A DNA stretch of 32,000 bases from Desulfotalea psychrophila LSv54 (GTDB taxonomy: Bacteria > Desulfobacterota > Desulfobulbia > Desulfobulbales > Desulfocapsaceae), in the NCBI RefSeq assembly GCF_000025945.1, contig NC_006138.1, positions 2,670,001 to 2,702,000 on the forward strand. Reading direction: 5' to 3'. The translations under genes were made by a program, and so were the position numbers. The notes beneath the pieces are model-generated. The model was given only the letters and a program-made list of their open reading frames with translations. It did not search any database and was not told where the DNA came from. Shown one piece after another: positions 1,708 through 29,614 of this stretch; within the stretch, counting starts at the first letter, position 1; every line of letters begins with the position of its first letter.

Positions 1708-1708
1708 G

Positions 1709-4050: not shown

Positions 4051-4186
4051 AAAGATCCCTCACTTTTACGACTGCGGCTTGGTTATGATTGATCAATGAT
4101 GATCTTTAATTTAGAATTTTGGCAAAAGCCCAATCAGCGAAATATTGCCATGCTCTTTATACATTTATGGGGGGCTAATGAAATAT

Positions 4187-4540: not shown

Positions 4541-4569
4541 ACTTACAGATATCGGTTTAAATATAAAAT

Positions 4570-5181
4570 TTAAATTTTCATTGACAGGTGGATAGTTTTT
4601 GGCATTGATCGAAATACCAATATTAATTTTTTTTGGAATAAAATGTCTTTTTTTTCATTTACATGGAGACCAATAATTGTTGCTGTATACGCTGGAACTC
4701 CATCTGACAAAACCACAAGTATTTCTTCAACTGCAAAAAAAGTTGGAAATGAAAGCACATCAATTGTTGGTAACGGAGTATAATTTTTTGAAACTGACAA
4801 TAAACCAAAATTGTGCTCGAAAACTAACTTTCCCGGTTCAATTGGAACCTTTTGTTCAGCTTCTGATCTGATATCCAATGATTTATCATAAGTTAATTCA
4901 ACTTTGACAATTTCTAGGGGCTCATCATTTTTATTCTTTATTGCTAGATTAATCGGCATCCTAATCCTACTTGCGAACAAATCGCTTTCGTTCAAGGTGA
5001 CTTCGATGTTATTTGTATCGACTAAAAAAATATCACCCTTTTGATCTTTTTTATACCATGCGATTCCTATTTTTAAGTTTTTATACCAACCATTTATTTC
5101 CTGACACACACTAAACGCCGAAGATATTAAACCAGCAATTAAAGCTAATCCGCCTATTATAAGCCATACTTTTTTTAACAT
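4570..5181 (-). CDS. hypothetical N-terminally membrane-anchored protein
   Basis: ORF of 203 aa. The N-terminus KKVWLIIGGLALIAGLISSAF is a single hydrophobic anchor. The rest is beta-rich-looking with no recognised motif. Confidence 0.55.
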   Translation of the reverse strand: MLKKVWLIIGGLALIAGLISSAFSVCQEINGWYKNLKIGIAWYKKDQKGDIFLVDTNNIEVTLNESDLFASRIRMPINLAIKNKNDEPLEIVKVELTYDKSLDIRSEAEQKVPIEPGKLVFEHNFGLLSVSKNYTPLPTIDVLSFPTFFAVEEILVVLSDGVPAYTATIIGLHVNEKKDILFQKKLILVFRSMPKTIHLSMKI

Positions 5182-5455
5182 AATTAGTTTTTTATCGAAT
5201 TACATTGTTAGTTAATTAAATGATTTTGTGGAATGCCATAATTATGATATACTGCCAAATGCACTGTCCAACAAGTTATTACACAGACCTGTAGCACAAT
5301 TTTGTCTAATAGAGGCCCATCATACAGTCGTCTTCCGGCAGACAACATTCTTACAGGGGCCAGGAAAGGCTCTCCCTCCCCTCGCAAAGAGTTGCCCCCC
5401 TCTTACACTATTAATTGGTTATGAGCAATAATTAAGAGCCTTTATCTATGAACAA

Positions 5456-7643: not shown

Positions 7644-8321
7644 ATGCTTAGCGCATCTATCCCGGGAAATCACCTCCTCAGAGTCCAAGTATATAACTAT
7701 CTTGAAAAACAGATGCAACTCGGTAATCTGAAGCCTGGATCTTCGATCAGTGTCAACACAATGATAAAGGAACTCGGCGTGAGCCGAACTCCTCTACGAG
7801 AAGCACTCATATTGCTTCAGGAACAAGGTTTTGTCTCCATTCAACCGCAACGTGGAGTGAAAATTAATGCGCTGAATATGGATGATGTTAAAGATATATA
7901 TGAAATTCTGGGAGGAATTGAATCTAGCATTTTTCTTTCTGTATTTGATAATCTGAGAGAAAAGGAAATTCAACAGATGAAGATGTTGAATAATGAAATT
8001 GAATTAGCTCTCGCAAATGAAGATATAATTAGGCACAATCAATTAAATGTCGATTTTCACGATACTTTTTTAGGGTTATCTAACAACAAACGCATGCTCA
8101 GATATGTGGGAATTCTTAAGATGCAACTCTATGATTTTCCAAGACGAAATTTTGGCATAAAGTGGAACAATAACAACTTGTATCAACATAGACAGTTTAT
8201 CCAGCTCATAGAAGAAGGAAAGGCCGTATCAGCAGCTGACTATCTAAGAGATATTCATTGGGACTTTGATCTTCCCGATTCGTTTCAAATCATCTCTGGC
8301 GCTGAAGAGCACCGAGGGTAA
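7644..8321 (+). CDS. GntR-family transcriptional regulator, FadR/FCD-type C-terminal domain
   Basis: Winged HTH LKPGSSISVNTMIKELGVSRTPLREALILLQEQGFVSIQPQRGVKI. Helical C-terminal half with the DIYEILGGIES pattern typical of FCD domains. Confidence 0.9.
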   Translation: MLSASIPGNHLLRVQVYNYLEKQMQLGNLKPGSSISVNTMIKELGVSRTPLREALILLQEQGFVSIQPQRGVKINALNMDDVKDIYEILGGIESSIFLSVFDNLREKEIQQMKMLNNEIELALANEDIIRHNQLNVDFHDTFLGLSNNKRMLRYVGILKMQLYDFPRRNFGIKWNNNNLYQHRQFIQLIEEGKAVSAADYLRDIHWDFDLPDSFQIISGAEEHRG

Positions 8322-10070: not shown

Positions 10071-11702
10071 TTATGGGGCAGAAGGAGTATGAGCTGACAA
10101 GATCCGCAACACCTCTTCACATTTTCTGGCTGCCCGGGCAGCTATTTCCTGCGCCACAGAAAGAACCTCCTCTCTATAGAGAGGGTCCTCGATATCCCTC
10201 ATATTAATCAGAACATTCTGATAGGCCCCCCAGATCCCGGTTTCCAGGGCCCTGGCCCCGACCAAGGTATCTGAAGCGGAGGCCGGATTGCCATGACGAG
10301 CGACCTGACAAAAACTGTCCCAGGCCCCATCGGCCAGGCGCATGGTCCCAAGCGGCACATTGATGGCTGTCTTCAGCCCGGCCTCCATCCTGCCATCACG
10401 TCTCTCTCTCTCCTCCTCTGTGGACTGTGGTAGCCGCATCCCTGCCATATAATCGTTAAAGGCCGAGCTATCCCTATCAATCACAGAGATCAGCTGTTGG
10501 GTAAGCTGGTGCAGAACGGGAATTGCCTCCTGCATCTGGGGCTGAACCTCCTCGAATTTTCGCACCCCATGGGTAAGTTTGGCTACCATTGAGCCAAGGG
10601 CGGTGCCGATGGCCGCAATAGCCGCCGAAGCCGAACCGCCACCCGGGGCAGAGCTACGGGCCGCGATCTCTTCAATAAATTCCCGTACAGTGGCCCCGGC
10701 CAGAGGTTCGAGCAGTTTTTCTGCCAGCCGATATTCAATGATTTTTTCCTCTGGCTTAAATTGCGCCACCGAATTGAGACCCAGCCGTTCAATAGCCAGC
10801 CGGATTTTCTGCTCCTCTTCATAGATAAAGAGGTCTTCCTTTTCGATATAGTAATCAGCTGCCATAAGAAGAGTTTCAAGAGGCAACAGACCAACAATCT
10901 CTGAACCGGCCACCGCCAGGTTTAGGGCCCCTGCCTCCTCTTTCACCTCCTCAAAGAGGAGATGAATGGGTGTTACCCGATAGTCGAGAATATTTGCCGT
11001 CACCTGAGCCATATTATACTCCTGCACAAACCAACCCATTGCCCTAACCTCTCGCAGACGACCGGGCGCACCTTCTCCCCTGCCCGCCTCCCGCAGGTTA
11101 AGGGCTATGCGGTGAGCCTGATTAGGCGTTGCCAATATATTAACATTATAGGCGATAAGAAAATTACGGGCCCCCGTGGCCGTAATCCCCCAGCTCGGAA
11201 CAAACTCCGAGGGGCCATAGTCGGGTTGCCATTTTGCCTCTGTCAGGCGGAGAGCCAAGCCCTCATACTCTCCCTGCCGTAAGGCCGAGAGTTCCCGCCG
11301 ATAATCATGCTCTGCGGCAGCCCCATAGAGATAAAGGGGAATCCCGAGTTCCTCCGCCGCCCTCTTGGCAAATCTCCGGGCCAACTGAACACACTCCTCC
11401 ATGCTCACCCCGGTAATAGGGATAAAGGGACAGACATCCATGGCCCCAAAGCGAGGATGCTCTCCACTGTGGTTGCGCATATCTATCAGGGTAGCTGCCA
11501 CCCGGGCCGCGGTCAATGCACCTTCAAGCACAGTCTCCGGGTCACCCACGAAGGTAAAGACGCTTCGATTGGTCGAGCTCCCGGCATCAAGGTCGAGTAA
11601 GGTACATCCGTCGGTCTCTTTAATGGCCCTGGCTATTGCCCCTATAATTTTCTGATCTCTTCCCTCGGAAAAATTGGGAACACACTCCACTATCTTCTTC
11701 AT
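10071..11702 (-). CDS. ftcD: bifunctional glutamate formimidoyltransferase / formimidoyltetrahydrofolate cyclodeaminase
   Basis: The N-terminus KIVECVPNFSEGRD is the formiminotransferase hallmark. The C-terminal third has PGGGSASAAIAAIGTALGSMV, the cyclodeaminase motif. ATG at 11702 with RBS AAGGAGAGGG is preferred over the upstream alternative start at 11726. Confidence 0.9.
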   Translation of the reverse strand: MKKIVECVPNFSEGRDQKIIGAIARAIKETDGCTLLDLDAGSSTNRSVFTFVGDPETVLEGALTAARVAATLIDMRNHSGEHPRFGAMDVCPFIPITGVSMEECVQLARRFAKRAAEELGIPLYLYGAAAEHDYRRELSALRQGEYEGLALRLTEAKWQPDYGPSEFVPSWGITATGARNFLIAYNVNILATPNQAHRIALNLREAGRGEGAPGRLREVRAMGWFVQEYNMAQVTANILDYRVTPIHLLFEEVKEEAGALNLAVAGSEIVGLLPLETLLMAADYYIEKEDLFIYEEEQKIRLAIERLGLNSVAQFKPEEKIIEYRLAEKLLEPLAGATVREFIEEIAARSSAPGGGSASAAIAAIGTALGSMVAKLTHGVRKFEEVQPQMQEAIPVLHQLTQQLISVIDRDSSAFNDYMAGMRLPQSTEEERERRDGRMEAGLKTAINVPLGTMRLADGAWDSFCQVARHGNPASASDTLVGARALETGIWGAYQNVLINMRDIEDPLYREEVLSVAQEIAARAARKCEEVLRILSAHTPSAP

Positions 11703-12031
11703 TGCCCTCTCCTTGGGGAACCTCAAAAAATAGTCTTTTCTTCAAATCTCTACCTTGTATGAAAAAATTTTATCCTCGGAGGTAAACATAGACTCCGATA
11801 TGACGATGCCTATGGTAAATTTTTTAATTCGCCTCGCAGTCGGGGCTGCTCATTATTGAAAATTCTTAATTTCTCTGCCATCACCAACAAAAACTTAAGA
11901 AATGAAATGACTGAGTAAAAAACTCCCCTGCGAAGCGTAAGATTATTTTATTCTTTCGGCGTACTAAAGTACGTCGTAATGATAAAATAACTGCAACAGA
12001 CAAGCAGATGATGATTTTTTACAAGGTCATC

Positions 12032-13276
12032 TCAGTGTACTTTCTCTCCTCGTTTATAGACACTGGCAACAGAAGAGACCCCGGCATGATAGGCAAGAAC
12101 GGCTGGCGTCTCACCTTCCAGCAGAAGAAAATCCGCCTGTTTCCCTCTATCCAAACTACCGACCCTGTCTGCCATATTAAGGGCATAGGCCGAGTTTAAA
12201 CTTGCCCCCGTCAGAGCCTCGGCCGGAGTCATCTCCATATTGAGGACGGCCAGGCCAATAACAAACTGCATTGACTCAGTAAAACTTGAGCCCGGATTAC
12301 AGTCGGTGGCCAGAGCCACGGCCACCCTGTTTTCAATCATCACCCTGGCCCGAGCATAGTCCTTTCTGAGACTATAGGCCGTAGCGGGTAGGAGGGTGGC
12401 AATCACCCCGGCCTGAGACATGGCCCTTATATTGGTGTCACTTGCCGCCAGCAGATGATCCGCCGAACAGGCGCCCAGTTCAGCGGCCAGGCCCGCCCCG
12501 CCAAGATCAGTCACCTCATCGGCGTGGATCTTAAGCCCCAGTCCCATTGCCCGAGCAGCCTTTAATAAAATACGGCTCTGCTCTATGCTAAAAACCCCTC
12601 TCTCACAGAAGACATCACAAAACCGGGCAATCCCCTGTTCCCGGACTCGGGGAAGCATCTCCTCCACGATCATTGTAATAAAGGCATCGGCATCTGTTTT
12701 ATACTGCCCGGGAATGGCATGGGCACCAAGGAAGGTGGCCACTATATCAAGACAGCTGTCTACTGCCACCCGACCAATCACCCTCAGCATCTTCAGCTCA
12801 TTGTCCGTATCCAGCCCATAACCGCTTTTTATCTCCAGACTGGTGGTGCCAAAGCTCAACGCAGTTTGCACCCGATGGAGAGTACTCTTATAGAGCTCAT
12901 CCTCACCTGCCAGAGCGACCGCTCGCACCGAGGAGAGAATTCCACCGCCCTCACTCAGTATTTGCAGATAGGAGGTCCCTGCTATGCGCTGGGCAAATTC
13001 TGCCTCTCTGGGAGCGGCAAAACACATATGGGTATGGGGATCAACGAAGCCGGGAATCATACATCTGCCCCCACAGTCCACCTCCTCCACCTCTGCTCCC
13101 CCCTTGGCCACTGCCAGCACAGCCTCCTCATCGCCCATGGCCACAATCAAACCATCTGCCACCAGCAGGGCCCCATTGGGGAAATGGGCCAGTTTTCCCT
13201 GAGCCTTGCCAGCCGACGGCTGACCGCTGTCCATGGGGCTGTATATCCTTGTATTGCGAAAGAGCTGATGTGACAT
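12032..13276 (-). CDS. hutI: imidazolonepropionase
   Basis: Amidohydrolase metal motif GFVDPHTHMCFAA, plus KIHADE and ATDCNPGSS. Strong RBS AAGGAGG. Confidence 0.95.
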   Translation of the reverse strand: MSHQLFRNTRIYSPMDSGQPSAGKAQGKLAHFPNGALLVADGLIVAMGDEEAVLAVAKGGAEVEEVDCGGRCMIPGFVDPHTHMCFAAPREAEFAQRIAGTSYLQILSEGGGILSSVRAVALAGEDELYKSTLHRVQTALSFGTTSLEIKSGYGLDTDNELKMLRVIGRVAVDSCLDIVATFLGAHAIPGQYKTDADAFITMIVEEMLPRVREQGIARFCDVFCERGVFSIEQSRILLKAARAMGLGLKIHADEVTDLGGAGLAAELGACSADHLLAASDTNIRAMSQAGVIATLLPATAYSLRKDYARARVMIENRVAVALATDCNPGSSFTESMQFVIGLAVLNMEMTPAEALTGASLNSAYALNMADRVGSLDRGKQADFLLLEGETPAVLAYHAGVSSVASVYKRGEKVH

Positions 13277-13544
13277 TTCCTGCCTCCTTATTTTCCATCC
13301 TGAAACGTCCCTCTCGTCCTGGGGCTCTGTAAAACTTTATCCACCGTATATTGTTTGCCCTTTTCTCGCGCTGACTTCGTTTCTCATTCGGTCACATAGC
13401 GCTGCTATGTTTCTTCATTCGTGCCTTGCAGCACACCAAAATGGCTCAACAATATTTACGATATCTAAAGCTCTACAAAGCACTTGCTTATCGTCGTCCG
13501 CAAAATTTAATCCTCGGAGATAAGCGTGGTTCGAGCTCTGCCTG

Positions 13545-15572
13545 CTAGTCTGATTCCGAAAAAAGGAGGGCCACAGCCTCGGCTATCTGGCCTTCATCGG
13601 TCTGAAAGGGAATGGTTATCTGGTCATGGTTTTCATTTTCACCGTTATAGGCCATGGCCACCTGCATGGCATTGGGGTTGCGGGCCCAGTTGCGGCGGGC
13701 AACACCGCCCATCACATCCCAGGAGATGGCGCTGGCCAGTATCTCATCCACCCGAAGACTGCCATCGAGGACCATGGCGAAACCGCCGTTAATCGCCTTG
13801 CCAATTCCGGTTCCGCCACCATTATGCAGGGCCACCAATGACATACCCCGGGCGGCATTACCGGCAAAACAGTGGGTGGCCATATCGGCACAGACGTTAC
13901 TGCCATCGCAGATATTGGCTGTTTCCCGAAAAGGCGAGTCGGTACCACCCGGATCATGATGGTCACGACCGATAATGATCGGGCCCACCTCGCCCCTACG
14001 CACCATCTCGTTAAATTTTAGGGCAATGGCCGTGCGCCCTCCTGCATCGGAGTAGAGAATACGGGCCTGGCTACCGACCACCAGATTATTGGCCCTTGCC
14101 TCCTTAATCCACATATAATTATCGCGATCCTCTAACCTGCGATTAGGATCAATACAGGACATTGCCGCCCTATCTGTCTTAGCAAGATCTTCCGGCCTGC
14201 CACTTAAACAGACCCAGCGAAAGGGGCCATAACCGTAGTCAAAGATCGGCCCCATAATATCTTCAAAGTAAGAGGGAAAGACAAAACCGTCTTTGCCATC
14301 GACACCATTTTTAACAACCTCCGTTACCCCCGCATCAAAGACAGCCTTAAGAAAGGCATTGCCGTAATCAAAAAAATAGGCCCCCTGCTCTGAGAGTTTT
14401 TGAATGGCCGCATAATGACGATGCAGGCTCTTATCGACCAGTGATTTAAAGAGGGGGCGGTCGGTGCCAAGCAGACGGGTTCGCTCGGCAAAATCGATTC
14501 CCTGCGGACAGTAACCACCATCGTAGACAACATGGCAGGAGGTCTGGTCTGAGAGAAGATCGACCGGGAACTTTTTTTCCGCTAAATACTCAAGGAGATC
14601 AACGACATTACCATGGTAGGCAATTGAACTATTATCCCTTGCCGCACGACTCTTATCGGCAATGTTCAAGATCTCGTCTAAATTATCCGAAACCACATCC
14701 ACCCAGCCCTGTTCTTTACGGGTATTGATCCTGGAAAGATCAACCTCGGCGGTGATAGAGACGGCACCTGCAATCTTTGCCGCCTTAGGCTGGGCCCCGC
14801 TCATTCCGCCAAGACCGGAGGTAACAAAGAGCAGACCGGCAAGATTACCCGTCCCCACCCCGCACATCTTTCGCCCACCGTTGAGCAGGGTATTATAGGT
14901 GCCGTGGACAATACCCTGAGGTCCGATATACATCCAGCCTCCGGCCGTCATCTGCCCATATGAGGAGACGCCCATCTGGGCTGCAATCTCCCAATCATCA
15001 GGATTATCGTAGAGACCGACCATCAGGCCATTACTGATAATGACCCTCGGCTGGTCAGGATCTGATTTAAAAAGCCCCAAGGGGTGACCTGACTGCATCA
15101 CCAAGGTTTGCTCTTCGCTCATGGCCTGCAGATATTTTTTTATGAGCCGCAGTTGCATCCAGTTCTGACAAACACTGCCAGTCTCGCCGTAGGTCACCAA
15201 CTCATAGGGATAGAGAGCAATATCAAAATCAAGATTATTGTCAATCATCAGCTGAAAGGCCTTCCCAGCCAAACAGTTCCCCTGATACTGATCGATTGCC
15301 TTGGCCTTTATCAACCCATGAGGACGATAGCGATACCCGTAGATACGGCCCCTGCTCTTCAGTTCTTGTAAAAACTCCGGGATGAGGAGTTGATGGTGCT
15401 GCTCCGGAATATAACGCAGGGCATTTTTCAGGGCGGTCTCGGTCTGACTCCTGCTCAAGCGAAAGCCACGATCCGGAGCACGGCGGATTCCTGGCAAAAA
15501 CTCCTCTTGGACCGGCAGCTCATCGGCCAAGCGAATCTTCATCACCCCGGCAATTTCCGCATTATCAATCAT
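13545..15572 (-). CDS. hutU: urocanate hydratase, long (~675 aa) form
   Basis: Conserved QMTAGGWMYIGPQGIVHGTY, LFVTSGLGGMSGAQP and HDPGGTDSPFRETAN. The N-terminal extension GIRRAPDRGFRLS..ALRYIP is characteristic of the long-form enzymes. ATG at 15572 follows GGGGAGGG, so the ORF-track start at 15638 is less likely. Confidence 0.95.
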   Translation of the reverse strand: MIDNAEIAGVMKIRLADELPVQEEFLPGIRRAPDRGFRLSRSQTETALKNALRYIPEQHHQLLIPEFLQELKSRGRIYGYRYRPHGLIKAKAIDQYQGNCLAGKAFQLMIDNNLDFDIALYPYELVTYGETGSVCQNWMQLRLIKKYLQAMSEEQTLVMQSGHPLGLFKSDPDQPRVIISNGLMVGLYDNPDDWEIAAQMGVSSYGQMTAGGWMYIGPQGIVHGTYNTLLNGGRKMCGVGTGNLAGLLFVTSGLGGMSGAQPKAAKIAGAVSITAEVDLSRINTRKEQGWVDVVSDNLDEILNIADKSRAARDNSSIAYHGNVVDLLEYLAEKKFPVDLLSDQTSCHVVYDGGYCPQGIDFAERTRLLGTDRPLFKSLVDKSLHRHYAAIQKLSEQGAYFFDYGNAFLKAVFDAGVTEVVKNGVDGKDGFVFPSYFEDIMGPIFDYGYGPFRWVCLSGRPEDLAKTDRAAMSCIDPNRRLEDRDNYMWIKEARANNLVVGSQARILYSDAGGRTAIALKFNEMVRRGEVGPIIIGRDHHDPGGTDSPFRETANICDGSNVCADMATHCFAGNAARGMSLVALHNGGGTGIGKAINGGFAMVLDGSLRVDEILASAISWDVMGGVARRNWARNPNAMQVAMAYNGENENHDQITIPFQTDEGQIAEAVALLFSESD

Positions 15573-15782
15573 TTCACCCTCCCCTGTTTTCAGATTACCC
15601 AGCAAACAACAGTAAGCATTTTGAAATAATTGTATCATCCCCTCGCCGCGTATACAAGTTGCTGTAAACTGGCAGTTTCCACTTGATTCAAGCCTGCTTT
15701 ATCTATACGCTTTAAGCGTGGTTATGAATAAGGTATCCCCCACAGCACAGAGCATCTAACCGCCTTAGCAGGAGACACAGCT

Positions 15783-17321
15783 ATGAACAGCAAAATAGAG
15801 ATCAAGCCTGGCAGGCTCACTCTGGCAGAACTTCGCAGGATGGCAAAGGCACCGGTCGGGGTCAGATTAGAAGAGAAGTGTAAAGGAAAAATTAATGCCT
15901 CGGTCCAAACAGTAGGCGAGGTGATCAGACAGGGGCGGGTAATCTACGGCATCAATACCGGCTTCGGCCTGTTGGCAAACACCATTATCCCAAACGAAGA
16001 GCTTGAGCATCTGCAACGATCGCTTATCCTCTCCCATGCGGCAGGTGTAGGTGCTTTCATGGCAGACTCTACGGTGCGGCTGATGATGGTACTCAAGATC
16101 AACAGCCTGGCCCGGGGCTATTCCGGAATACGGCTTGAGGTAATCGAGGCCTTAGTACAGCTGCTCAACGCTGAGGTCTATCCATCTGTCCCCCAAAAAG
16201 GCTCGGTGGGGGCATCGGGAGACCTCGCTCCTCTGGCCCACATGAGCATCGTCCTCCTCGGTGAAGGTGAGGCCTCTTACCGGGGGCAAAGACTATCCGG
16301 GCGGGAAGGTTTAGAGCTAGCCGGTTTATCCCCCATCACCCTCGGCCCCAAGGAGGGACTGGCCCTGTTAAATGGCACCCAGGCATCCACCGCCTTTGCC
16401 CTGCAAGGGCTCTTTGCCGCCGAAGAGCTATTTGCCACAGCCATGGTTTCCGGAAGCTTAAGCCTTGATGCAGCCCTCGGAAGTCGCCGCCCCTTTAATC
16501 CACTTATTCATGCTGTACGCGGACATAAGAGCCAAATAGATGTCGCCGCCTCCTATAGACAACTCCTTGAACATAGTGAGATCGAACGTTCCCATAAATT
16601 CTGTGAGGCCGTTCAGGACCCATACTCCCTGCGCTGCCAACCTCAAGTTATGGGTGCCTGTCTCAACCAGATCCGCAACGCGGCAGAGGTGATCGGCACC
16701 GAGGCAAACGCTGTCTCCGACAATCCCCTGGTTTTCTGTAAAGAAAATGACATCATCTCCGGCGGTAACTTCCACGCTGAACCCATTGCCATGGTGGCCG
16801 ACAACCTGGCCCTGGCCATTGCCGAGATTGGTGCCCTGCCCGAGAGAAGAACGGCCCTGCTCATCGATTCTCATATGTCGGGCCTTCCCCCCTTTCTCGT
16901 TGACAAGGGCGGGCTCAACTCCGGTTTTATGATAGCGCAGGTAACCGCGGCGGCTCTGGCCAGTGAAAATAAGTCCCTTGCCCATCCGGCATCGGTTGAC
17001 AGCCTGCCAACCTCGGCTAATCAGGAGGACCATGTCTCCATGGCAACCTTTGCCGCCAGACGACTCTTGGAAATGGCCGACAATACAGCAGGAATTCTAG
17101 CCATTGAGCTGCTTGCCGCCTGCCAGGGAATCGACTTTCGCGCCCCCCTTAAGACCTCACCCCTGCTGGAAGAGGCCAAGAGCATTGTCCGCCAGGTTGT
17201 GGCCTTTTACGATCAGGACCGCTACCTTGCCCCGGATATCAAAAACGCCCAGGCGCTTGTTCAAGCCGGGGCCTTCAATCACCTGGTCAGCCGCGATCTC
17301 CTGCCAAGTTTTAACAGATAG
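15783..17321 (+). CDS. hutH: histidine ammonia-lyase
   Basis: [15 protein letters not shown] contains the Ala-Ser-Gly triad that forms the MIO cofactor. RBS AGGAGA. Confidence 0.95.
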
Positions 17322-18092: not shown

Positions 18093-18935
18093 CTATCTGT
18101 TCGCGGGCCAGGGGGCGAGCGGCGCATACTCGTTTAGGGCATCGGCTTCAGCCCTGCAGTCACCTGTGGGTGGAAGACCCTTGGTGCGAAAGGCCTTGAG
18201 TTCAGCCTTGGCAACCTCTATCTCGGCCAGAAAAGCTGGATCGGCGTGTAACCTGGCAACCACAGCGGCACCCATGATTCGGCCCATCATCACATCGCTC
18301 TGCCAATGAGCATTACAGACTATCCGGCTCTGACCAAAAGCCCAGCCACGGGCCAGGATCGCATCGGTCTGTTCGGGAGATACCTCAACCAGAATAAGGG
18401 TCCAGGCCCATCCTATGGACGTATGACCAGAGGGATAGGAGCCGGACTTTTTCAGCTGCTCCTCCTGCTGCGGAGTACAGACAGGCTCGCCATTGACCAC
18501 AAAGGGCCGGGTTCGCCTGTAGTTATCTTTGGCCTTATCGGTAGAGAGCGCCGCATCAGTAAGAGTATGGCGCAAAAGCATATAGAGATGGGGTGTCTCT
18601 TCCTCGCTGATGGGGACACCCAGAGCACAGGAAAAGGCCTCCGCTGCCTGAGGAAATGTTAACCTGGCGTCCCGTGCCGCCAAGGTCCAACGAGCTGTAT
18701 CCCGCAGGGTGAGGCTCTGCTTGCTCACCTCTCTATCAAGGGCAAAGGCCGTTGACTCTTTAGCGGGAGGTTGAGGAAGAAGAGCCAGGCTATCTGGTAG
18801 CGTGTCAGTTGCTAAATATCCATCTAAAAAAACCAGCTTCGGTATCGGTTGCAGATCGTTCTGCTTTTCCACCCCTGCACAGCCTGCCAGCAGGAACATG
18901 CACATTACAACGATACTGATTTTAATTCTCTTCAT
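18093..18935 (-). CDS. class A (PAP2-type) nonspecific acid phosphatase, lipoprotein
   Basis: Lipobox LLAGC. Signature KDNYRRTRPF ... YPSGHTS ... SRIVCNAHWQSDV, matching KX6RP / PSGH / SRX5HX3D. Confidence 0.9.
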   Translation of the reverse strand: MKRIKISIVVMCMFLLAGCAGVEKQNDLQPIPKLVFLDGYLATDTLPDSLALLPQPPAKESTAFALDREVSKQSLTLRDTARWTLAARDARLTFPQAAEAFSCALGVPISEEETPHLYMLLRHTLTDAALSTDKAKDNYRRTRPFVVNGEPVCTPQQEEQLKKSGSYPSGHTSIGWAWTLILVEVSPEQTDAILARGWAFGQSRIVCNAHWQSDVMMGRIMGAAVVARLHADPAFLAEIEVAKAELKAFRTKGLPPTGDCRAEADALNEYAPLAPWPANR

Positions 18936-20512: not shown

Positions 20513-20694
20513 ATAGTATAACTGTATATTTTTTCTGCTAGTGACAGAATATCATGATGAGGTAACGAGCACTATGAATATATATTTTTACTCAGGGAGT
20601 AAGGATCGATGCAAGACAAACTGCTCTTACCAAACATGCGCCAATAGACACTTATATGCCCTGCAACACTCGCCACCTTCAGCAATCCAACTTC

Positions 20695-20931
20695 TTACAG
20701 AGGGATCTCTTCTTCAGCCAACTCCCCCCCCTCAGGAACGGAGATCTCATTATACTTCACCTGAAAAGCAATCATGACCTCGAACAACTCATTGCCAATA
20801 AAAGCGTGTTCGACCAATGTCGCCTCATCCTCATTATTAGAAAAGAGGTCTTTGAATCTTCGAGAAGTTACCATTATCTCAACCGCTGAACAAAACCCAA
20901 TAGATTTATGAAATGTCGTATGCAAACTCAT
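20695..20931 (-). CDS. hypothetical 78-aa ORF (weak)
   Basis: It is the only ORF in this gap that does not look like low-complexity junk. No motif recognised. It may be a fragment. Confidence 0.2.
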   Translation of the reverse strand: MSLHTTFHKSIGFCSAVEIMVTSRRFKDLFSNNEDEATLVEHAFIGNELFEVMIAFQVKYNEISVPEGGELAEEEIPL

Positions 20932-21009
20932 CGACCTTTAAACTTCGTAGAATCAAAATAGCCAAGCAACAGATGTTTCCTTAACCCAACCTTCGGCCAG
21001 GGAAAAACC

Positions 21010-22539
21010 ATGACCAAAGAACAACTCTTCGCCTCATTTGTACTTGATCACGAACAGGGACTAGAAATAGCTCTGCGAGCTGAATATGTCACCGAAGCCA
21101 CTCCCATTCAAGGAACAATACAAAAACTTCCTGGATCCATACCTTTTCTAGAAGGAGTAATGCATCTTCGCAATGAAGTCATTCCCGTGCTTAACCTCAA
21201 GAAACGACTTGGTCTGAGTAATTCGCAGTACAGTAATACCGCCAAAGTTGCTGTGGTAACCCTGCGGGAACACCGTTTTGGCCTGCTCTTTGAAGATATC
21301 AAGGAAGTGTTCGGCGTTAGGCCAGAGGCAATCAACCCTATCAGCAAGGTACTGCAAACTGAAGATCAAATCATCTCAGCACTGATAAACGTAGAACCCG
21401 GCAAAAGAGCTATTGAGCTCCTCGACCTCAACCATCTCTTTAAAGGTGACATCGAAGAAAATACTGGTGCTGCACGTGGAGAAAACGGAGCACAACAAGC
21501 AAAACCCATATCATACTCGCGCTTTGTAGCCTTTGAATGTGCAGGCCAGGAATATGGCGTTCCGGTTGATCTTGCGCGAGAAATCACTTTTTGCGCCAAG
21601 ATCGATGAACTCTTTAAAACCGGAATGACCGCAGGTGTCATAGAGCTCCGCGGCAGGACTATTCCCATCTTAAACACCCTGGCGTTACTTACAGATGACA
21701 ATGATGCACAATATGAAATCACCGAGCATACTAGAGTGTTGGTCTTGGCCTGCGAAGATTGCACGGTAGGGTTCATTGTCGATGAAATCAAAGAAATTCT
21801 CTCTATTCCAGACGAGGACATCCTACCATTCACAGCAGGTGAAAATAGCAATATAACCGGCTTATATCCACGCGTTGGCAATAACAATACTATCTTGCTC
21901 AATATGCAAAATCTTGTTTGCGATCAAATTGATAACATCAAAGCAATGGCTAGAATTGGTGAGCACGACAAAAAAGCTGCCGAGGAAAAACAATCAACAA
22001 CTAACACAACATCACACCACCTTATTACCGAAAACGGCTATTTGGTTTTTTCCATAGGAAAGAATTTTGCGCTAGAGATCAAAGATGTGAAAGAAATTAT
22101 CGAAAATAACACCATGATGAAAATCCCCAAAGCAATGGGACACATGAGGGGAATGATCAACCTTCGTGGGGAGGTTGTTCCGGTAGTGGACCTTCGAAGG
22201 TTCTACAACTATGAGCCGAGAAGAGATGACGCAATGGGAAAGCTTATTATTTGCAATGGCCATGGGCAAACAGTAGCTCTAGAAGTAGACCAAATTGTTA
22301 CCATATATAAGAAGGAACAGTTCCACACAACACCTTCTCTTGGCAATCAACTGAGAGACAAAAAAGATACACTTGATCGCCTTATTGAATACCTTAACCC
22401 TGATGGCATCAATGAACATGTCCTTGTGGTAAACACACACAACCTTATTCGCAACCATTTACAAATGAACAGTGAACAAACAGCTGACACAGAAAATTTG
22501 GCTACAAAGAATAACACTAACTCAATAAATGAGGGGTAA
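21010..22539 (+). CDS. chemotaxis coupling protein with three tandem CheW-like domains
   Basis: Three repeats of the CheW pattern: [17 protein letters not shown]...[23 protein letters not shown]; [21 protein letters not shown]...[19 protein letters not shown]; [21 protein letters not shown]...[19 protein letters not shown]. Confidence 0.9.
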
Positions 22540-22543
22540 GAAC

Positions 22544-25500
22544 ATGGAAATGAAGAAAGGAACAACAACCGACGAGATGGGCTCTTCCTGCCTAAACCTC
22601 ATGATGCACCCAAGTTTTATTGTTAACGATGGTCGTATGATCACTTGGGCAAACGAGGCGTTTCTCAAAACATTCGACTTAAAATCCGCTGACGTGATCA
22701 ATAAAATGAGTTGCGAAGAAGCCTGTACGACACATCTCTGCGGCACAAAAGATTGCCCTGTCAATAAATCTGCTCGTATAAACAAACCTGTTAAAGCAGA
22801 TATAATACACAACAAAAATAATAAAATTAGTCACTTCACATCTCAAGCACGTCCCGTAAACGGTAAAGATGGTGGGACATTTGTCTCAATGACAGATATC
22901 TCTGAGCTCAAACAGGCAAAAGCTGATCTCTATCAAATGCAAACAGATCTCAATGTCATTCCAACTCCTATTATGGAAATTGATAAGAGTTATAACGTTA
23001 CCTTTATGAACCCCGCTGGAGCGGGAGTTGTAGGCTCAACACCAAACGAAGTAATCGGGAAAAAATGTTACGATCTTTTCAAAACGCCTCATTGTAAGAC
23101 CAACAAATGTGCCTGCTCTCGTGCCATGCAAACAGATTCTGTAATCACCGATCACACCATCGCGCGCCCTGCTGACGGTGTCATCATCCCTATTAAGTAC
23201 ACCGGCGCACCGATCAAAGACGCTAAAGGAAATATAAAAGGTGCCCTGGAATATATTCTCGATATGACCGAGGAGACAAAGCAAAAGCACGCCGCCAATG
23301 AAAAAATTGAAAACCTCAATACTATCCCAACACCAATCATGGCGATCGACACCGACTACACCGTAACCTTTATGAATCCTGCTAGTGCTGCAGTGGTCGG
23401 CTCAACACCTGACGAAGTCATTGGCAAAAAATGCTACGACCTCTTTAAGACGCCACATTGTCGAACTGATAAGTGTGCCTGCCTTAGGGCAATGAAAACC
23501 GATTCTGTTATCACGGACCATACCATAGCCCGGCCCCAAGATGGGGTGATCATCCCTATTAAATACACTGGTGCTCCCATCAAGGATGCCAAGGGAAATA
23601 TCAAGGGTGCTCTGGAATACATTCTTGATATGACAGAGGAAAAAAAGCAAACGCAGGCGGCAAACGAAAAAATTGAAAATCTCAATACTATCCCAACACC
23701 GATCATGTCAATAGACACTGAGTATGGTGTTACTTTTATGAATCCTGCGGCCGCCGCAGTGGTCGGCTCAACACCTGACGAAGTCATTGGCAAAAAATGC
23801 TACGACCTCTTTAAGACGCCACATTGTCGAACTGATAAATGTGCCTGCCTAAGAGCGATGAAAACCGATTCTATCATCACAGACAATACCATAGCCCGGC
23901 CCCAAGATGGTATTATCATCCCTATTAAATACACTGGTGCTCCCATCAAGGATGCCAAGGGAAATATCAAGGGTGCTCTGGAATACATTCTTGACGTGAC
24001 TGAAGAGAACAAACAAAAACAAGCCGCCGATGAGAAAATTGAGAATCTCAACACGATACCAACGCCAATACTCTCCATTGACACTGATTATAATATTACC
24101 TTTATGAATCCAGCGGGAGCCGCAGTGGTTGGTTCCACACCAGACGAAGTTGTTGGTAAGAAATGCTATGACCTGTTTAAAACAGGCCATTGCAGAACTG
24201 ACAAATGTGCCTGCCTAAGAGCGATGAAAACCGATTCTATCATCACAGACAATACCATAGCCCGGCCCCAAGATGGTATTATCATCCCTATTAAATACAC
24301 TGGTGCTCCCATCAAGGATGCCAAGGGAAATATCAAGGGTGCTCTGGAATACATTCTTGACGTGACTGAAGAGAACAAACAAAAACAAGCCGCCGATGAG
24401 AAAATTGAGAATCTCAACACGATACCAACGCCAATACTCTCCATTGACACTGATTATAATATTACCTTTATGAATCCAGCGGGAGCCGCAGTGGTTGGTT
24501 CCACACCAGACGAAGTTGTTGGTAAGAAATGCTATGACCTGTTTAAAACAGGCCATTGCAGAACTGACAAATGTGCCTGTACCCAGGCGATGAAAACAGA
24601 CTCTGTAGTGGACGATCGCACCACAGCCTCTCCAAATGGGCAAGAAATGTCGATCAAATACACTGGTTCTCCCATTAAAGATGCAAAGGGAAATATCAAG
24701 GGTGCTCTGGAATACATAACTGATGTCACCGCCGAGAAAAAAGTAGAACAATTAATTGCCAATGCGGTAACGGAAGTAGATTCGTTGGTCAGTTCATCAA
24801 AACAGCATATGGATGAGGCCAACACCCATGTTGATGAGATGACAGTAATTATCGATGATGCTGTTCAACAACTTGATGAATCAATGACCACAGTCCACAC
24901 AATGCTTGAGAGTTCCAAAGAGATGCTCCAACTGTCCTCCGAATCAAACACCCTTGCGGCTGATCTTGCAAAGGAAGCTGAAACTGGCAAGATTGCAGGG
25001 CGGGATGCAGGGCAAAAACTTGCCGACATCAACGCTACCATGGAGAAAAACAACGAAATGGTAGGTGGACTCGTCAATGAACTTGAGAAAATTTCAAGTT
25101 TTGTAGATATTATCAAAGAGATTGCCTCTCAAACAAATCTTCTCGCCTTCAATGCGGCCATTGAAGCTGCCCGCGCAGGTGATGCAGGACGTGGCTTTGC
25201 TGTTGTCGCCGACGAAGTACGAAAACTTGCAGAGAACAGCTCTAAATCAGCTATTGATATCTCAACTATTGTCAAGAAGGTGGAAAAAGATTCCCACCAA
25301 ACCATCAACGCGATGCAAGAGGGGATGAAGATGTTAGGAGATGGTGGCCGTGTAATCAACACTGCATTAGAATCCATGGAAAATATATCTAAAGGTATTG
25401 TCACTATCTCCGCCTCAGTTGACAAGGTAAGCAACAAAGCAGAAAGTCTCAGCGATAACGGCAGTGCAGTTATGGCAAAAATTGAGACAGTGGCTACCTC

Positions 25501-25621
25501 GTCTAAAAAGAACCAAGAATCCACAGTAATCGTAAACGAGTCTCTTTCTGGCACCATGGCTGCTCTCACCCAGCTCACCGCTTCCAGTCAAGAACTCCAA
25601 AAAGCTGTAAACAACCTTTAA
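22544..25621 (+). CDS. soluble methyl-accepting chemotaxis protein with six tandem PAS-like modules
   Basis: The C-terminal signalling hairpin [41 protein letters not shown] is diagnostic. There is no hydrophobic TM segment. Five 122-aa PAS-like units begin at 22946, 23312, 23678, 24044 and 24410, preceded by one divergent unit. ATG at 22544 follows GAGGGG, so the ORF-track start at 22529 is possible but less likely. Confidence 0.9.
23837..24579 (+). repeat. perfect 366-bp tandem direct duplication (2.03 copies) inside the MCP gene
   Basis: Base-by-base reading shows 23837-24202 identical to 24203-24568. Identity continues 11 nt further, to 24579. The period of 366 nt equals 122 codons, so the duplication is in frame. 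Confidence 0.95.
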
Positions 25622-25628
25622 TCTTAGA

Positions 25629-25663
25629 ATGATCCCAGGGGAGACCAAATCGCCTGGGATCAT
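25629..25663 (+). terminator. hairpin after the MCP gene
   Basis: ATGATCCCAGG (25629-25639) pairs with CCTGGGATCAT (25653-25663). It is followed by CTTTGG, a weak U-tract. Confidence 0.5.
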
Positions 25664-25675
25664 CTTTGGAACGCT

Positions 25676-26239
25676 ATGACTATTTTTGGAGATGTTATAT
25701 ATACACCGAGGTTATGTCTTCGAAAGATTACCGAAGATGACATCAAACTCCTAGCCTCTTGGAGTAAGAGCACAACTGCACATGGCCCTTACCTCTCAGT
25801 TGAAAACCTCACAGAAGAGAGCTTGAGGAATAAGTTCGAAAACGGAGGACTCTGGTCGGAGACTAACAGAACTTTTTTGGTGGAACTTCGTGAAGGTACG
25901 CCCTTAGGAATTATCCACTACTGGGTCCGTCCCGAGAGTAAAGAAAGCGCCGTCATCAAAATCAAACTCTCAGACCCCAAACAAAGAGGCATGGGATATG
26001 GCACAGAAGCTCAAAAATATTTAATCAGCAACCTGTTTCAACGAATGAAAATGAGCGAAGTGCGAATGTACACAGACATCAACAATAAAGCGCAACAACG
26101 ATGCCTCAACAAGCTTGGGTTTGAACTATCAGAGTCTCTCACCTACGATGACCAACAGGTTACTCGACTTGGACATCTCTACAAACTACACTCTGCACAG
26201 TTTCAACTTTGTCACATATATCAATACCATTATGAATAA
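25676..26239 (+). CDS. GNAT-family N-acetyltransferase (RimJ/RimL-like)
   Basis: LCLRKITEDDIKLLASW start, acetyl-CoA loop QRGMGYGTEAQ, and C-terminal NNKAQQRCLNKLGFE. Confidence 0.85.
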   Translation: MTIFGDVIYTPRLCLRKITEDDIKLLASWSKSTTAHGPYLSVENLTEESLRNKFENGGLWSETNRTFLVELREGTPLGIIHYWVRPESKESAVIKIKLSDPKQRGMGYGTEAQKYLISNLFQRMKMSEVRMYTDINNKAQQRCLNKLGFELSESLTYDDQQVTRLGHLYKLHSAQFQLCHIYQYHYE

Positions 26240-27257
26240 ACTAGGCATCATCCTTGATGATCGCTATTTTGATCATCAAATAGAAGCAGCATCACACGAG
26301 AGCCCAAATCGTCTGCGTGAACTGTTCCCTGCTGTGCGTAAAAGATATAACGGTGATCTTCGCATAATCACGCCACACGAAGCTAATACTGAGACAATTG
26401 AAAAAGTGCATTCGAATTTTTACCTCAGCCAAATCAGAGAGCATGCCCTAAAAAGCAATCCCTTTTCTTATGATCAAGATACCTACCTGATGCAACAGTC
26501 CCTTGCAACAGCCCAACTTGCAGCAGGAGGATGCCTGGAAATCGCTGACCAGATAATGAACGGTGAAATAGACCATGGATTTGCTCTGATTCGCCCACCA
26601 GGACACCATGCAGAACCTGGACGCGGTATGGGGTTTTGTATTTTGAATAATATTGCTATCACCGCAAAATATTTACAAACTCATTACAACCTGAGCAGAA
26701 TACTTATTATCGATTTTGATGTACACCACGGTAACGGCACCCAAGAAGTATTCTACGATACCAACCAGGTACTTTTTGTTTCAATCCACCAAAAGAACCT
26801 CTTTCCCTTTAGTGGTGCGCCAGAAGAAATTGGCAACGAGCAAGGGCGCGGTTACAATATCAATATTCCTGTTCATAGCCAATTTGGTGATGCAGAATAC
26901 ACCTACCTACTCGGCAAGACCTTACAAGGATTAGCAGTACAGTTCATGCCCCAAATTATCCTTGTTTCGGCAGGTTATGATGGCCATGTCGAGGAATCAA
27001 TAAGTGCCACAACCCTCAGTACCCAATGGTATCATACCGCCACAACCATGCTCAAACAGGCGGCAAAAGATATCTGTGATAGCCGACTTCTTTTTGTTTT
27101 AGAGGGAGGCTACAACCCAATATCACTAGAAAAATCTGTCCTAAAAACAATTGATAGCATGCTCGAACCCGAGACAAAACGGGTCGGAGTGTTGCACTCT
27201 GCACGGGCCGCACAATTACTAATCAACCATCCTCTTCACGATTTTTGGACGCTATAA
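26232..27257 (+). CDS. histone deacetylase-family (arginase-fold) deacetylase
   Basis: ALIRPPGHHAEPGRGMGFCILNN, IIDFDVHHGNGTQEVFY and VLEGGYN. ATG at 26232 (MNKLGIILDDRYF) overlaps the GNAT stop in the sequence ATGAATAA. The ORF-track start at 26115 would lie inside the GNAT gene. Confidence 0.9.
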   Translation: MNKLGIILDDRYFDHQIEAASHESPNRLRELFPAVRKRYNGDLRIITPHEANTETIEKVHSNFYLSQIREHALKSNPFSYDQDTYLMQQSLATAQLAAGGCLEIADQIMNGEIDHGFALIRPPGHHAEPGRGMGFCILNNIAITAKYLQTHYNLSRILIIDFDVHHGNGTQEVFYDTNQVLFVSIHQKNLFPFSGAPEEIGNEQGRGYNINIPVHSQFGDAEYTYLLGKTLQGLAVQFMPQIILVSAGYDGHVEESISATTLSTQWYHTATTMLKQAAKDICDSRLLFVLEGGYNPISLEKSVLKTIDSMLEPETKRVGVLHSARAAQLLINHPLHDFWTL

Positions 27258-27269
27258 AGGACTGGGACA

Positions 27270-27710
27270 ATGACAAAAAACATATCTCTTGATGCAAGCA
27301 AATTGAACTCTATCTTTCACGAGTGCAACCAATGCGGCACCTGCTGTAAACAATATAGAAAAATCACCCTACACCATGATGAGGTTGAACAGATAAAAAA
27401 GCTTGGCGGTTATGTGGGTGTTGATATCAGCATAAAAGAGATTCGCGAAAAAGGACTCCAGCAGGCAAGGGAAGATGCTGAAAAAAGAGGGAAAGTATTT
27501 ATGATCCATCCCGATGATAAGGGATGCATATTTCTCGAAAAACGAAATGACAAATATGTCTGCAAGATTTATCACTACCGTCCAAGAACATGTAGAGGCT
27601 TTAAGTGTAATATGGCAGATGATAGTTTTCTTTCTCTCTTTGGTCGTAACGCTATCCACCTTCTCGGGCAGACAACATATGGCCTCCCCTTAAAAGAGGA
27701 TGTGTCATAG
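27270..27710 (+). CDS. YkgJ-family Cys-cluster (CxxCxxCC) protein
   Basis: CNQCGTCCKQY at the N-terminus and CKIYHYRPRTCRGFKC near the C-terminus. Confidence 0.85.
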   Translation: MTKNISLDASKLNSIFHECNQCGTCCKQYRKITLHHDEVEQIKKLGGYVGVDISIKEIREKGLQQAREDAEKRGKVFMIHPDDKGCIFLEKRNDKYVCKIYHYRPRTCRGFKCNMADDSFLSLFGRNAIHLLGQTTYGLPLKEDVS

Positions 27711-28762: not shown

Positions 28763-29614
28763 TTATCTGTTGGCAGGCCAGGAGGCCAGAGGCAGATTCT
28801 CGGACAGAGCTGCGGCTTCGCCCTTACAGTCAACTGTCAAGGGAAGCGCCTTGGCGCGAAGGGCCTGCACCTCAGCCTTGGCGGCCTCTATCTCAGCCAG
28901 AAAGGCCGGATCGGAGTGTAATTTAGCAACCGCCGCAGCCCCCATGACTTGCCCCATCAGCACATCGCTCTGCCAGTGAACATTACAGATTATTCGGCTC
29001 TGGCCAAAGGCCCAGCCACGGGCAAGAATGGCATCAGTCTGCTCAGGTGCAACCTCAACAAGAATCAGGGCCCAGGCCCAGCCTATGGCCGTATGACCAG
29101 AGGGGAAGGAGCCGGACTTCTTCATGTGCGCCTCCTTCGTCGGAGTACAGGTAGGCTCGCCATTAAGGACAAAGGGCCGGGTTCGTCTGTAGTGATTCTT
29201 GGCCTTGGTGGTAGAGAGTATCGCATCGGCAATGGTTCGGCGCAGGAGCATATAGAGATGGGGTGTCTCCGCCTCACTGATGGGAAGGCCCAGGGCACAG
29301 GAGAAGGTCTCCGCCGCCTGGGGAAATTTCAACCTGGCATCTCTCTTGGCCAGATTCCACCGGGCTGTGCCCTGCAGGGCGTGGCTCTGCCTGTTCACCT
29401 CTCTATCAAGGGCAAAGGCGGTTGACCCTTCAGCGGGAGGGGGAGGAATAAGGGTTAAACTATTTGGCAGCATATCAACCGGCAGGTAGCCCTGCAAAAA
29501 ACCGGGGCGGATCTCCGGCACCGCTTGCAGAGCATTCTGTTCTTTCACTCCTGCACATCCTGCCAGCAGGGCCACACAGACTAAGACAAGACCAATTTTT
29601 ATTTTCCCCATCAT
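28763..29614 (-). CDS. class A (PAP2-type) nonspecific acid phosphatase, lipoprotein (paralogue of 18093..18935)
   Basis: Lipobox LLAGC. KNHYRRTRPF ... FPSGHTA ... SRIICNVHWQSDV. Collinear with the first copy over the full length. Confidence 0.9.
   Translation of the reverse strand: MMGKIKIGLVLVCVALLAGCAGVKEQNALQAVPEIRPGFLQGYLPVDMLPNSLTLIPPPPAEGSTAFALDREVNRQSHALQGTARWNLAKRDARLKFPQAAETFSCALGLPISEAETPHLYMLLRRTIADAILSTTKAKNHYRRTRPFVLNGEPTCTPTKEAHMKKSGSFPSGHTAIGWAWALILVEVAPEQTDAILARGWAFGQSRIICNVHWQSDVLMGQVMGAAAVAKLHSDPAFLAEIEAAKAEVQALRAKALPLTVDCKGEAAALSENLPLASWPANR

Follow-up and report, generated by a model that had tools for sequence, protein, structure and literature searches.

A soluble chemoreceptor of Desulfotalea psychrophila with six tandem PAS units carrying a cysteine motif: a candidate iron-sulfur receptor

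The chemoreceptor gene and its product

A stretch of 32,000 nucleotides from Desulfotalea psychrophila LSv54 (contig NC_006138.1 of RefSeq assembly GCF_000025945.1, positions 2,670,001 to 2,702,000 of the forward strand), hereafter called the window, contains at 22544..25621 (+) a gene whose product is predicted from its open reading frame (ORF), Pfam matches and hydropathy to be a soluble methyl-accepting chemotaxis protein (MCP) with six PAS units followed by a signalling hairpin. Each PAS unit carries a cluster of cysteines, and the analysis concerns what these cysteines may bind and sense, an iron-sulfur (Fe-S) cluster being the candidate argued for below. Coordinates are counted from the first nucleotide of the window. 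An initial annotation of the gene had been made from the nucleotide sequence and its translated ORFs, without database searches, and its claims are taken up where the results bear on them.

The ORF at 22529..25621 (+) corresponds to 1030 predicted amino acids, or 1025 if translation starts at the ATG at 22544. Residue numbers given here follow the 1030 amino acid ORF, and 5 has to be subtracted for the shorter version. Inspection of the sequence revealed a Shine-Dalgarno-like GAGGGG at 22531..22536 (+), 7 nucleotides 5' of this ATG, and the TAA stop codon of the preceding gene, which encodes a CheW protein, is at 22537-22539. Because of this spacing and the position of the upstream stop codon, the start at 22544, which the initial annotation had chosen, is likely to be correct.

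Six PAS stretches were recognized in the protein with Pfam (PAS_9, 2.5e-86; PAS_4, 6.6e-86), together with one MCPsignal domain (2.7e-36; 125.4 bits against a cut-off of 34.6), which places the protein in the MCP family PF00015. Neither a HAMP domain nor the zinc-binding CZB domain matched the protein in Pfam, even at E ≤ 1, and CZB was rejected as a candidate on this ground; no Pfam domain of the membrane-associated kind was found either. No transmembrane segment was predicted, and since no 19-residue window has a Kyte-Doolittle mean above 0.95 the protein appears to be soluble. Pfam and hydropathy thus agree with the earlier description of a soluble MCP with six PAS modules and neither transmembrane nor HAMP region. 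Among the NCBIfam models only a generic 'sensory box' model matched, in addition to sub-threshold matches to named receptors.

The signalling coiled-coil hairpin extends over 24761..25618 (+), with the Pfam MCPsignal core at 24977-25495. Its two arms of approximately 139 and 146 residues, approximately 40 heptads in total, meet at a tip with the sequence AARAGDAG. The strict methylation consensus [ASTG][ASTG]xx[EQ][EQ]xx[ASTG][ASTG] is not matched in the signalling domain, and a C-terminal pentapeptide is not present. Adaptation of the receptor may be independent of classical methylation.

PAS units and cysteine motifs

The first PAS unit (unit 0, 22577..22942 (+)), delimited by its Pfam stretch, is divergent and has only 18 % amino acid identity with unit 2. 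It is followed by unit 1 (22931..23296 (+)), unit 2 (23297..23662 (+)), unit 3 (23663..24028 (+)), unit 4 (24029..24394 (+)) and unit 5 (24395..24760 (+)). Units 1, 3 and 4 were delimited by Pfam and the cysteine motif; unit 2, found with Pfam, is the unit that was modelled with AlphaFold2 and compared with Foldseek. Unit 5, recognized with Pfam, has a more divergent C-terminal half and leads into the signalling helix.

A motif scan located C-x8-C-x4-C-x-C exactly five times in the protein, at ORF residues 180, 302, 424, 546 and 668, thus with an exact spacing of 122 amino acids, as had been described in the initial annotation. The five sequences conform to CYDLFKT(P/G)HC(K/R)T(N/D)KCAC and their cysteines are here called C1 to C4, C4 being at position C3+2 (type B). 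The 17-residue motifs are at 23066..23116 (+) in unit 1, 23432..23482 (+) in unit 2, where the AlphaFold2 model also covers it, 23798..23848 (+) in unit 3, 24164..24214 (+) in unit 4 and 24530..24580 (+) in unit 5. Unit 0 has a motif of 15 residues (22712..22756 (+)), identified by motif scan and alignment, which reads C62-x3-C66-x4-C71-x4-C76, again as first described, and in which the fourth cysteine is found at C1+4 (type A). Three of its cysteines, C62, C71 and C76, also fit a core of C-x8-C-x4-C. The six motifs contain 24 of the 25 cysteines of the protein, and the signalling domain contains none. A regular expression search for CxxCH gave no match in the protein, which bears out the earlier statement that this is not a c-type haem site; PAS domains with c-type haem, similar to those of DcrA or of Geobacter GSU0582/0935, were rejected for the same reason. 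Every unit ends with a conserved D-x-T motif, of which D111 is invariant in 156 units.

Conservation of the motif among orthologues

Scanning one genome per species gave 30 orthologous loci with 59–78 % identity. Their hosts are nearly all Desulfobulbales (Desulfopila, Desulforhopalus, Desulfotalea, Desulfogranum and Desulfocapsaceae), with one Geopsychrobacteraceae genome in addition, and the orthologues have between 4 and 7 PAS units each. The units were detected by profile, independently of their cysteines. C-x8-C-x4-C was present in 150 of the 151 orthologue units covering the region (about 30 orthologues), the sole exception being the first unit of the outgroup genome, so that the cysteines are conserved in homologues. 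Since the divergent unit 0 fits this triad as well, the conserved core consists of three cysteines with a fourth that moves.

The fourth cysteine is at C3+2 in the middle and last units of the orthologues, at C1+4 in all 24 first units that were recovered (orthologues and window together) and at C1+5 in three last units that lack a cysteine at C3+2. None of the 122 orthologue units with a cysteine at C3+2 had another one at C1+3 to C1+6 (in practice +4 or +5), compared with 27 of the 34 units without it (Fisher's exact test, 3.9e-24, for units that are phylogenetically not independent). In the wider family described below the alternative cysteine occurred in 1 of 126 units with C3+2 and 25 of 132 units without it (2.9e-7 for representatives clustered at 50 % identity). 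This mutual exclusion suggests that the fourth cysteine acts as one of the ligands of a single centre. When relocated cysteines are counted, 149 of 156 orthologue units have four. Asp or Glu at C1+2 was found in 147 of 156 units and His at C2-1 in 129 of 156 (83 %). The fixed four-cysteine site of the initial annotation is accordingly replaced by a conserved triad, to which the fourth ligand is movable or dispensable.

Between 22990 and 24717 Tandem Repeats Finder reported 4.7 copies of a 366-nucleotide period, with 86 % matches. Comparison of the species shows positional orthology for the first, second and last units; the middle units have 89–93 % amino acid identity within a genome compared with approximately 80 % between species. 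Pairwise comparison of units 1 to 4 gave 24–57 synonymous and 8–27 non-synonymous codon differences. These many synonymous differences indicate that each unit has been maintained by selection, and the possibility that the repeats are merely a recent duplication without selection was rejected. Self-comparison also revealed a stretch that is exactly periodic at an offset of 366 nucleotides (23837..24579 (+)), in which a run of 377 nucleotides is identical (23837-24213 and 24203-24579). This exact identity suggests a very recent unit duplication or gene conversion, or alternatively the repeat may have been mis-assembled. Recent duplication agrees with the variation from 4 to 7 copies among species.

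A wider PAS subfamily

When 1.84 billion representative proteins were searched exhaustively with a profile, 96,773 matches were obtained at E ≤ 1e-3, of which 748 were at E ≤ 1e-30. At least one C-x8-C-x4-C was present in 128 of the best 146 representative matches. At least 85 of these 128 motif-bearing proteins are MCPs (35 of the 85 with a transmembrane-like segment), and the remainder include proteins in which the PAS is linked to STAS, histidine-kinase, CheR or KaiC domains. The survey of the cysteine variant and its output domains that the initial annotation had proposed thus shows chiefly MCP output. The typical number is two units per protein, and only 4 of the best 146 representatives have four or more, which bears out the earlier impression that the length of the array is unusual and indicates that arrays of 4–7 units are limited to this orthologue group.

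The residue at C3+2 was Cys in 126 of 258 units of the wider family and Val, Ile, Leu or Thr in 117. A cysteine elsewhere in the motif was present in 34 units, and 98 units (38 %) had three cysteines only, with Val, Ile, Leu or Thr at C3+2. Around the triad, Asp or Glu was found at C1+2 in 190 of 258 units (74 %), His at C2-1 in 138 of 258 (53 %) and Asp in 25 % (His and Asp together 78 %), and Thr or Ser at C2+2 in 97 %; the three-cysteine units also retain these D/E, H/D and T/S positions. The His called invariant in the initial annotation is therefore invariant within this protein, but in neither the family nor the orthologues.

Pfam and NCBIfam contain no model specific for the family, and the names that its members have in the source data are all generic. 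Judged from these sequences, a PAS subfamily that is large and has no name can be recognized by the motif. The methanogenic archaeon Methanohalobium evestigatum contributes one member, annotated as an MCP, by which the family spans both Bacteria and Archaea. The members with an identifiable organism belong only to Desulfobulbales, Geopsychrobacteraceae and Methanohalobium, all of which are lineages of strict anaerobes. Word-indexed protein searches, with either a single unit or a profile of 37 sequences, returned only short fragments of close relatives (at most 206 amino acids), and tblastn of one unit against 72,556 plasmids returned a single generic PAS match.

Other cysteine-rich PAS domains were encountered among P0060, P0070, P0089, P0090, P0128 and P0173. 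The patterns include C-x10-C-x2-C, repeated in giant histidine kinases, a five-cysteine 'CADLCRTPLCNTNNCTIKNC' type and C-x7-C-x4-C. The related MCP P0128 has one x3 variant, C-x8-C-x3-C, similar to that of the regulator OrpR discussed below, and a fragment named as a HydG activator (P0173) has a different cysteine pattern, SCRLLKCDAC. The diversity of PAS domains with cysteine clusters would thus seem to be greater than the literature reflects.

Predicted fold and position of the cysteines

The AlphaFold2 model of unit 2 had a mean pLDDT (predicted local distance difference test) score of 89.0 and canonical PAS topology. Its elements follow in the order strand 2, helix 3, helix 1, strand 3, which places the unit in the PAS superfamily. 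The best matches of the model in the PDB, found with Foldseek, were the PAS domains of DosP, LOV proteins and NifL (E from about 5e-8 to 1e-6, probability 1.00). In DosP the sequence match falls on the second PAS (residues 132-242), which is not known to bind haem. Searches of the PDB by sequence and profile yielded no solved PAS structure with this motif.

In the model C1 begins helix E-alpha, C2 and C3 are in the loop between E-alpha and F-alpha, and C4 begins F-alpha. This loop is the part of the modelled core with the lowest confidence. In a HMMER alignment to a LOV-type protein C1 coincides with the photoactive cysteine that forms the flavin adduct, and C1 would therefore face the cofactor pocket. 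From this alignment and the secondary structure of the model, the triad is predicted to line the classical cofactor pocket of PAS domains. Short helices at both ends of the single-unit model (N-terminal residues 3-5 and 7-9, C-terminal residues 113-121) suggest that the linkers between units may be helical. A model of two units had a mean pLDDT of 54.9, which is too poor for conclusions about the linker.

Comparison with described sensors

Fe-S PAS sensors and soluble PAS chemoreceptors are already known separately. The closest described site is the N-terminal PAS domain of OrpR, a sigma54 activator of Desulfovibrio vulgaris Hildenborough, in which C52, C61 and C65 are conserved (C-x8-C-x3-C), as is an Asp or Glu at position 54, corresponding to C1+2 (PMC8359166, Fievet et al. 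2021). On mild oxidation its [4Fe-4S]2+ cluster is converted to [3Fe-4S]1+, and the protein senses redox potential, not O2 itself (PMC8359166). The likeness to the units described here is limited to the motif and its position. In both cases a PAS domain from anaerobic Desulfobacterota has three conserved cysteines in the matching part of the domain, and the two have in common the C1-x8-C2 spacing and the acidic residue at C1+2. However, C2 and C3 are separated by three residues in OrpR and by four here (in all six units of the window and 150 of 151 orthologue units), a fourth cysteine is added in most of the present units, and OrpR combines a single PAS with transcriptional output, whereas here 4–7 tandem PAS are combined with chemoreceptor output. 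None of the matches listed in our search was a sigma54 activator with the motif. The initial annotation had not recognized the motif as a described cofactor site, but OrpR provides a precedent.

NreB, which had been suggested as the analogue in the initial annotation, is less similar. Like the present units it has a cytoplasmic PAS with a cysteine-ligated Fe-S cofactor for sensing; the protein of Staphylococcus carnosus is an oxygen sensor with a [4Fe-4S] cluster. In Bacillus licheniformis three cysteines suffice, and its structure, published in 2026, has a [2Fe-2S] cluster bound by C63, C66 and C78 (C-x2-C-x11-C) and belongs to a sulfide sensor (PMC13478379). The NreB spacing C-x2-C-x11-C(-x2-C) differs from C-x8-C-x4-C and occurs in none of the units, so an NreB-type motif was rejected; NreB differs also in its histidine-kinase output, its single PAS domain and its hosts, which are Firmicutes.

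The chemoreceptors Aer, Aer2 and AerC resemble the present protein in being MCPs in which a cytoplasmic PAS holds a redox or gas-binding cofactor for energy taxis or aerotaxis, and Aer2 and AerC are soluble. They differ in that the cofactor is flavin adenine dinucleotide (FAD) or haem b, in having one or two PAS domains and often HAMP, and in lacking a cysteine triad. DcrA and DcrH of Desulfovibrio vulgaris are likewise chemoreceptors of a sulfate reducer for which oxygen or redox sensing through a metal cofactor has been proposed; both, however, are membrane proteins, DcrA with periplasmic c-type haem (CxxCH) and DcrH with a C-terminal hemerythrin di-iron site. The PAS topology is shared by LOV domains, which rank among the best matches in fold and whose flavin-adduct cysteine in E-alpha aligns with C1. 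Despite the aligned cysteine, the LOV motif GxNCRFLQ is missing around C1, C2 to C4 have no counterpart in LOV domains, and a LOV photosensor was rejected.

No Fe-S chemoreceptor was found in the searchable literature, and searches for the written-out motif, for Fe-S PAS and for redox sensing by PAS-MCPs of Desulfobulbales returned nothing relevant to it. A review of aerotaxis receptors from July 2026 does not mention iron-sulfur and includes no Fe-S class (PMC13401364).

Gene neighbourhood

The MCP gene appears to be part of a cluster of six genes (20574-27710) whose order is conserved in Desulfobulbales: a small cysteine-containing ORF, a triple-CheW gene, the PAS-array MCP, a GNAT acetyltransferase, a deacetylase of the histone-deacetylase family and a YkgJ/CxxCxxCC-family protein. 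The triple-CheW gene (21010..22539 (+); three Pfam CheW domains, 1.2e-63) abuts the MCP start and was found with tblastn directly 5' of the orthologues at 27 loci, one of them a weak match and one truncated at a contig end. Its product is plausibly the scaffold for a membrane-free array. Directly 3' of the MCP is the acetyltransferase gene (25676..26239 (+); Pfam PF13302; 29 loci by tblastn), followed by the deacetylase gene (26232..27257 (+); Pfam PF00850, 9.1e-96; 28 loci by tblastn), the start of which was placed where the alignments of its orthologues begin. The last gene of the cluster (27270..27710 (+); Pfam PF03692; 26 loci by tblastn) encodes the cysteine-cluster protein of the YkgJ/CxxCxxCC family.

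The small ORF at 20574..20889 (+) is apparently frameshifted in the window. It precedes the CheW gene in 23 orthologous loci (tblastn), where it codes for approximately 130–148 amino acids with an N-terminal C-x3-C-x4-C and belongs to no Pfam family. Its N-terminal part was recognized at 20574-20666 with tblastn, and a region resembling the C-terminal part was seen, by eye only, in another frame in the ORF 20656-20889, suggesting that the copy in the window is a pseudogene or contains a sequencing error. Genes for CheA, CheY, CheR and CheB were not found in the window.

Elsewhere in the window, two PAP2-family paralogues with 71 % protein identity (18093-18935 (-) and 28763-29614 (-)) flank truA and the chemoreceptor cluster. 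A histidine-utilization set at 10071-17321 consists of a formiminotransferase-cyclodeaminase-like gene and the genes for a HutI-like amidohydrolase, urocanase and a HutH-like aromatic amino-acid lyase, and a GntR/FCD regulator is encoded at 7644-8321. The stretch 1-5200 has a GC content of 0.32–0.38 compared with 0.40–0.57 elsewhere in the window. Within it are a fragment similar to AbiH (2243-2728) and an ORF with DUF2971 (3283-4050), and the stretch is possibly an island of the defence or mobile kind. Rfam gave no match in the window.

What the cysteine motifs may bind

We consider it somewhat probable that the canonical PAS pocket of each unit is occupied by an Fe-S cluster, through which the unit informs a soluble, CheW-coupled array of the redox or oxygen state. 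The Fe-S suggestion of the initial annotation is thus retained as the best-supported reading, given the triad and the likeness to the OrpR motif, although the NreB-type site that it invoked is not. The analysis shows how the domains are arranged, how the cysteine ligands are conserved and shifted, where they lie in the predicted fold, how widely the family is spread and which genes accompany the receptor; what is bound and sensed, in which direction the cell responds and what the array is for are inferred.

Nearly all of the cysteines are confined to the motifs, with none in the signalling domain, and the triad is kept in all but one of the 151 orthologue units, while the synonymous differences show that each unit has been kept under selection. 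Three cysteines with a variable fourth ligand are a pattern of sensory Fe-S sites (NsrR, IscR, aconitase-type) and not of structural zinc, and the 98 of 258 units which keep three cysteines with a variable fourth position follow this pattern; where a fourth cysteine is present, its mutually exclusive placements are those expected of a ligand. The [4Fe-4S] site of OrpR has the same C1–C2 spacing and acidic residue, the model of unit 2 is closest to PAS domains that bind cofactors, with C1 at the position of the LOV cysteine, and the identified members all come from lineages of strict anaerobes. All of these favour an Fe-S cluster.

By analogy with OrpR the cluster would be of the [4Fe-4S] type, [2Fe-2S] also being possible. 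C1, with which E-alpha begins, would act as a ligand together with C2 and C3 from the E-alpha/F-alpha loop, and the fourth ligand would be a cysteine at C3+2 or C1+4/+5 or, in the three-cysteine relatives, an acidic or His residue. If a higher redox potential, O2 or reactive oxygen species, or perhaps sulfide or nitric oxide chemistry, led to the oxidation, conversion or loss of the cluster, the E-alpha/F-alpha region could be reshaped, and the change might be passed through the PAS sheet to the D-x-T exit motif, the linkers between units and the hairpin. The hairpin would then control CheA via the co-encoded triple-CheW scaffold, resulting in redox- or oxygen-avoidance taxis of an anaerobe in sediment gradients. 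Clusters in series might raise the sensitivity or grade the response, and the first, middle and last units, as distinct and positionally conserved types, may be tuned differently.

Several points weigh against an Fe-S cluster with this role. The C2–C3 spacing is one residue longer than in OrpR (x4 compared with x3), a restriction to anaerobes is indicated only by the few members with a known taxonomy, and what is sensed, like the sign of the response, is purely inferred. Furthermore, four cysteines within 17 residues would be plausible as a zinc knuckle too, and AlphaFold2 folds the domain confidently without any cofactor. Both of these speak for a structural Zn(Cys)3-4 site that stiffens the E-alpha/F-alpha loop, in which case the PAS units could respond to a different input, for instance a small molecule or a partner protein, or serve mainly as a spacer or dimerization rod. 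In zinc sites, too, a lost fourth ligand is replaced from another position, and zinc is known on the cytoplasmic PAS of WalK, even though the ligands there are not cysteines (bioRxiv 10.1101/405365). We nevertheless regard structural zinc as unlikely, since 38 % of the units have three cysteines only and Thr or a hydrophobic residue instead of the fourth, which is unusual for structural zinc, the site lies in the predicted cofactor pocket with C1 at the LOV-cysteine position, and the nearest described motif, that of OrpR, holds Fe-S and not zinc. The same three-cysteine units argue against a metal-free thiol/disulfide (or persulfide) switch, in which oxidants would close one or two disulfides per unit and alter the PAS conformation. 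The cysteines are near neighbours in the sequence, being on E-alpha and where F-alpha begins, an anaerobe could plausibly sense redox state, and the even number of cysteines per unit in the orthologue group would allow two disulfides; but the family core is odd in number, 98 of 258 units have no fourth cysteine, the D/E, H/D and T/S residues that are conserved nearby fit the surroundings of a metal or cluster better, and OrpR is a precedent for a cluster. Such a switch therefore appears improbable.

Sulfide gradients matter to Desulfobulbales, which are sulfur-cycling bacteria, and the solved three-cysteine Fe-S PAS senses sulfide (PMC13478379), so that a [2Fe-2S] cluster of the NreB kind could serve sulfide taxis instead of redox or oxygen taxis. 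We give this slightly less credence still, because C63-x2-C66-x11-C78 of NreB is unlike C-x8-C-x4-C and because the fourth cysteine, nearly always present in the orthologues, would leave no open coordination site. Least probable, and indeed very improbable, is haem b or another organic cofactor held by an axial Cys or His ligand. Haem-thiolate PAS sensors do exist, most units have a His before C2, and Foldseek ranked the haem-PAS protein DosP first. However, CxxCH is absent, the residue at C2-1 is not conserved as His (53 % His, 25 % Asp), haem does not need three invariant cysteines, and the DosP region that is matched by sequence is the second PAS, which is not known to bind haem.

Significance

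Recognized receptors for oxygen, redox and energy taxis use FAD, haem, globin, hemerythrin or c-type haem, and little is understood of the way in which sulfate reducers, methanogens and other strict anaerobes avoid oxidants. Tentatively, and with less confidence than we have in the Fe-S cluster itself, we propose that PAS domains with C-x8-C-x4-C form a widespread and unnamed class of Fe-S chemoreceptors, by which strict anaerobes among both the bacteria and the methanogenic archaea may steer along redox or oxygen gradients. The version found in Desulfobulbales might then be a multi-site redox rheostat of 4–7 clusters, encoded together with a triple-CheW protein and an acetyltransferase/deacetylase pair which perhaps replaces methylation-based adaptation.

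If this is true, a receptor class is missing from the current schemes of aerotaxis and energy taxis. The class would have a simple marker in C-x8-C-x4-C combined with D/E at C1+2 and T/S at C2+2. The tandem array, with 4–7 copies depending on the species, would offer a natural system for studying the integration of several cofactors on one receptor, and cultured carriers are available in Desulfogranum japonicum DSM 18378, Desulfogranum mediterraneum DSM 13871 and Desulfopila sp. IMCC35006. Should Fe-S be bound as in OrpR, the motif would define from sequence a testable class of receptors that extends over two domains of life.

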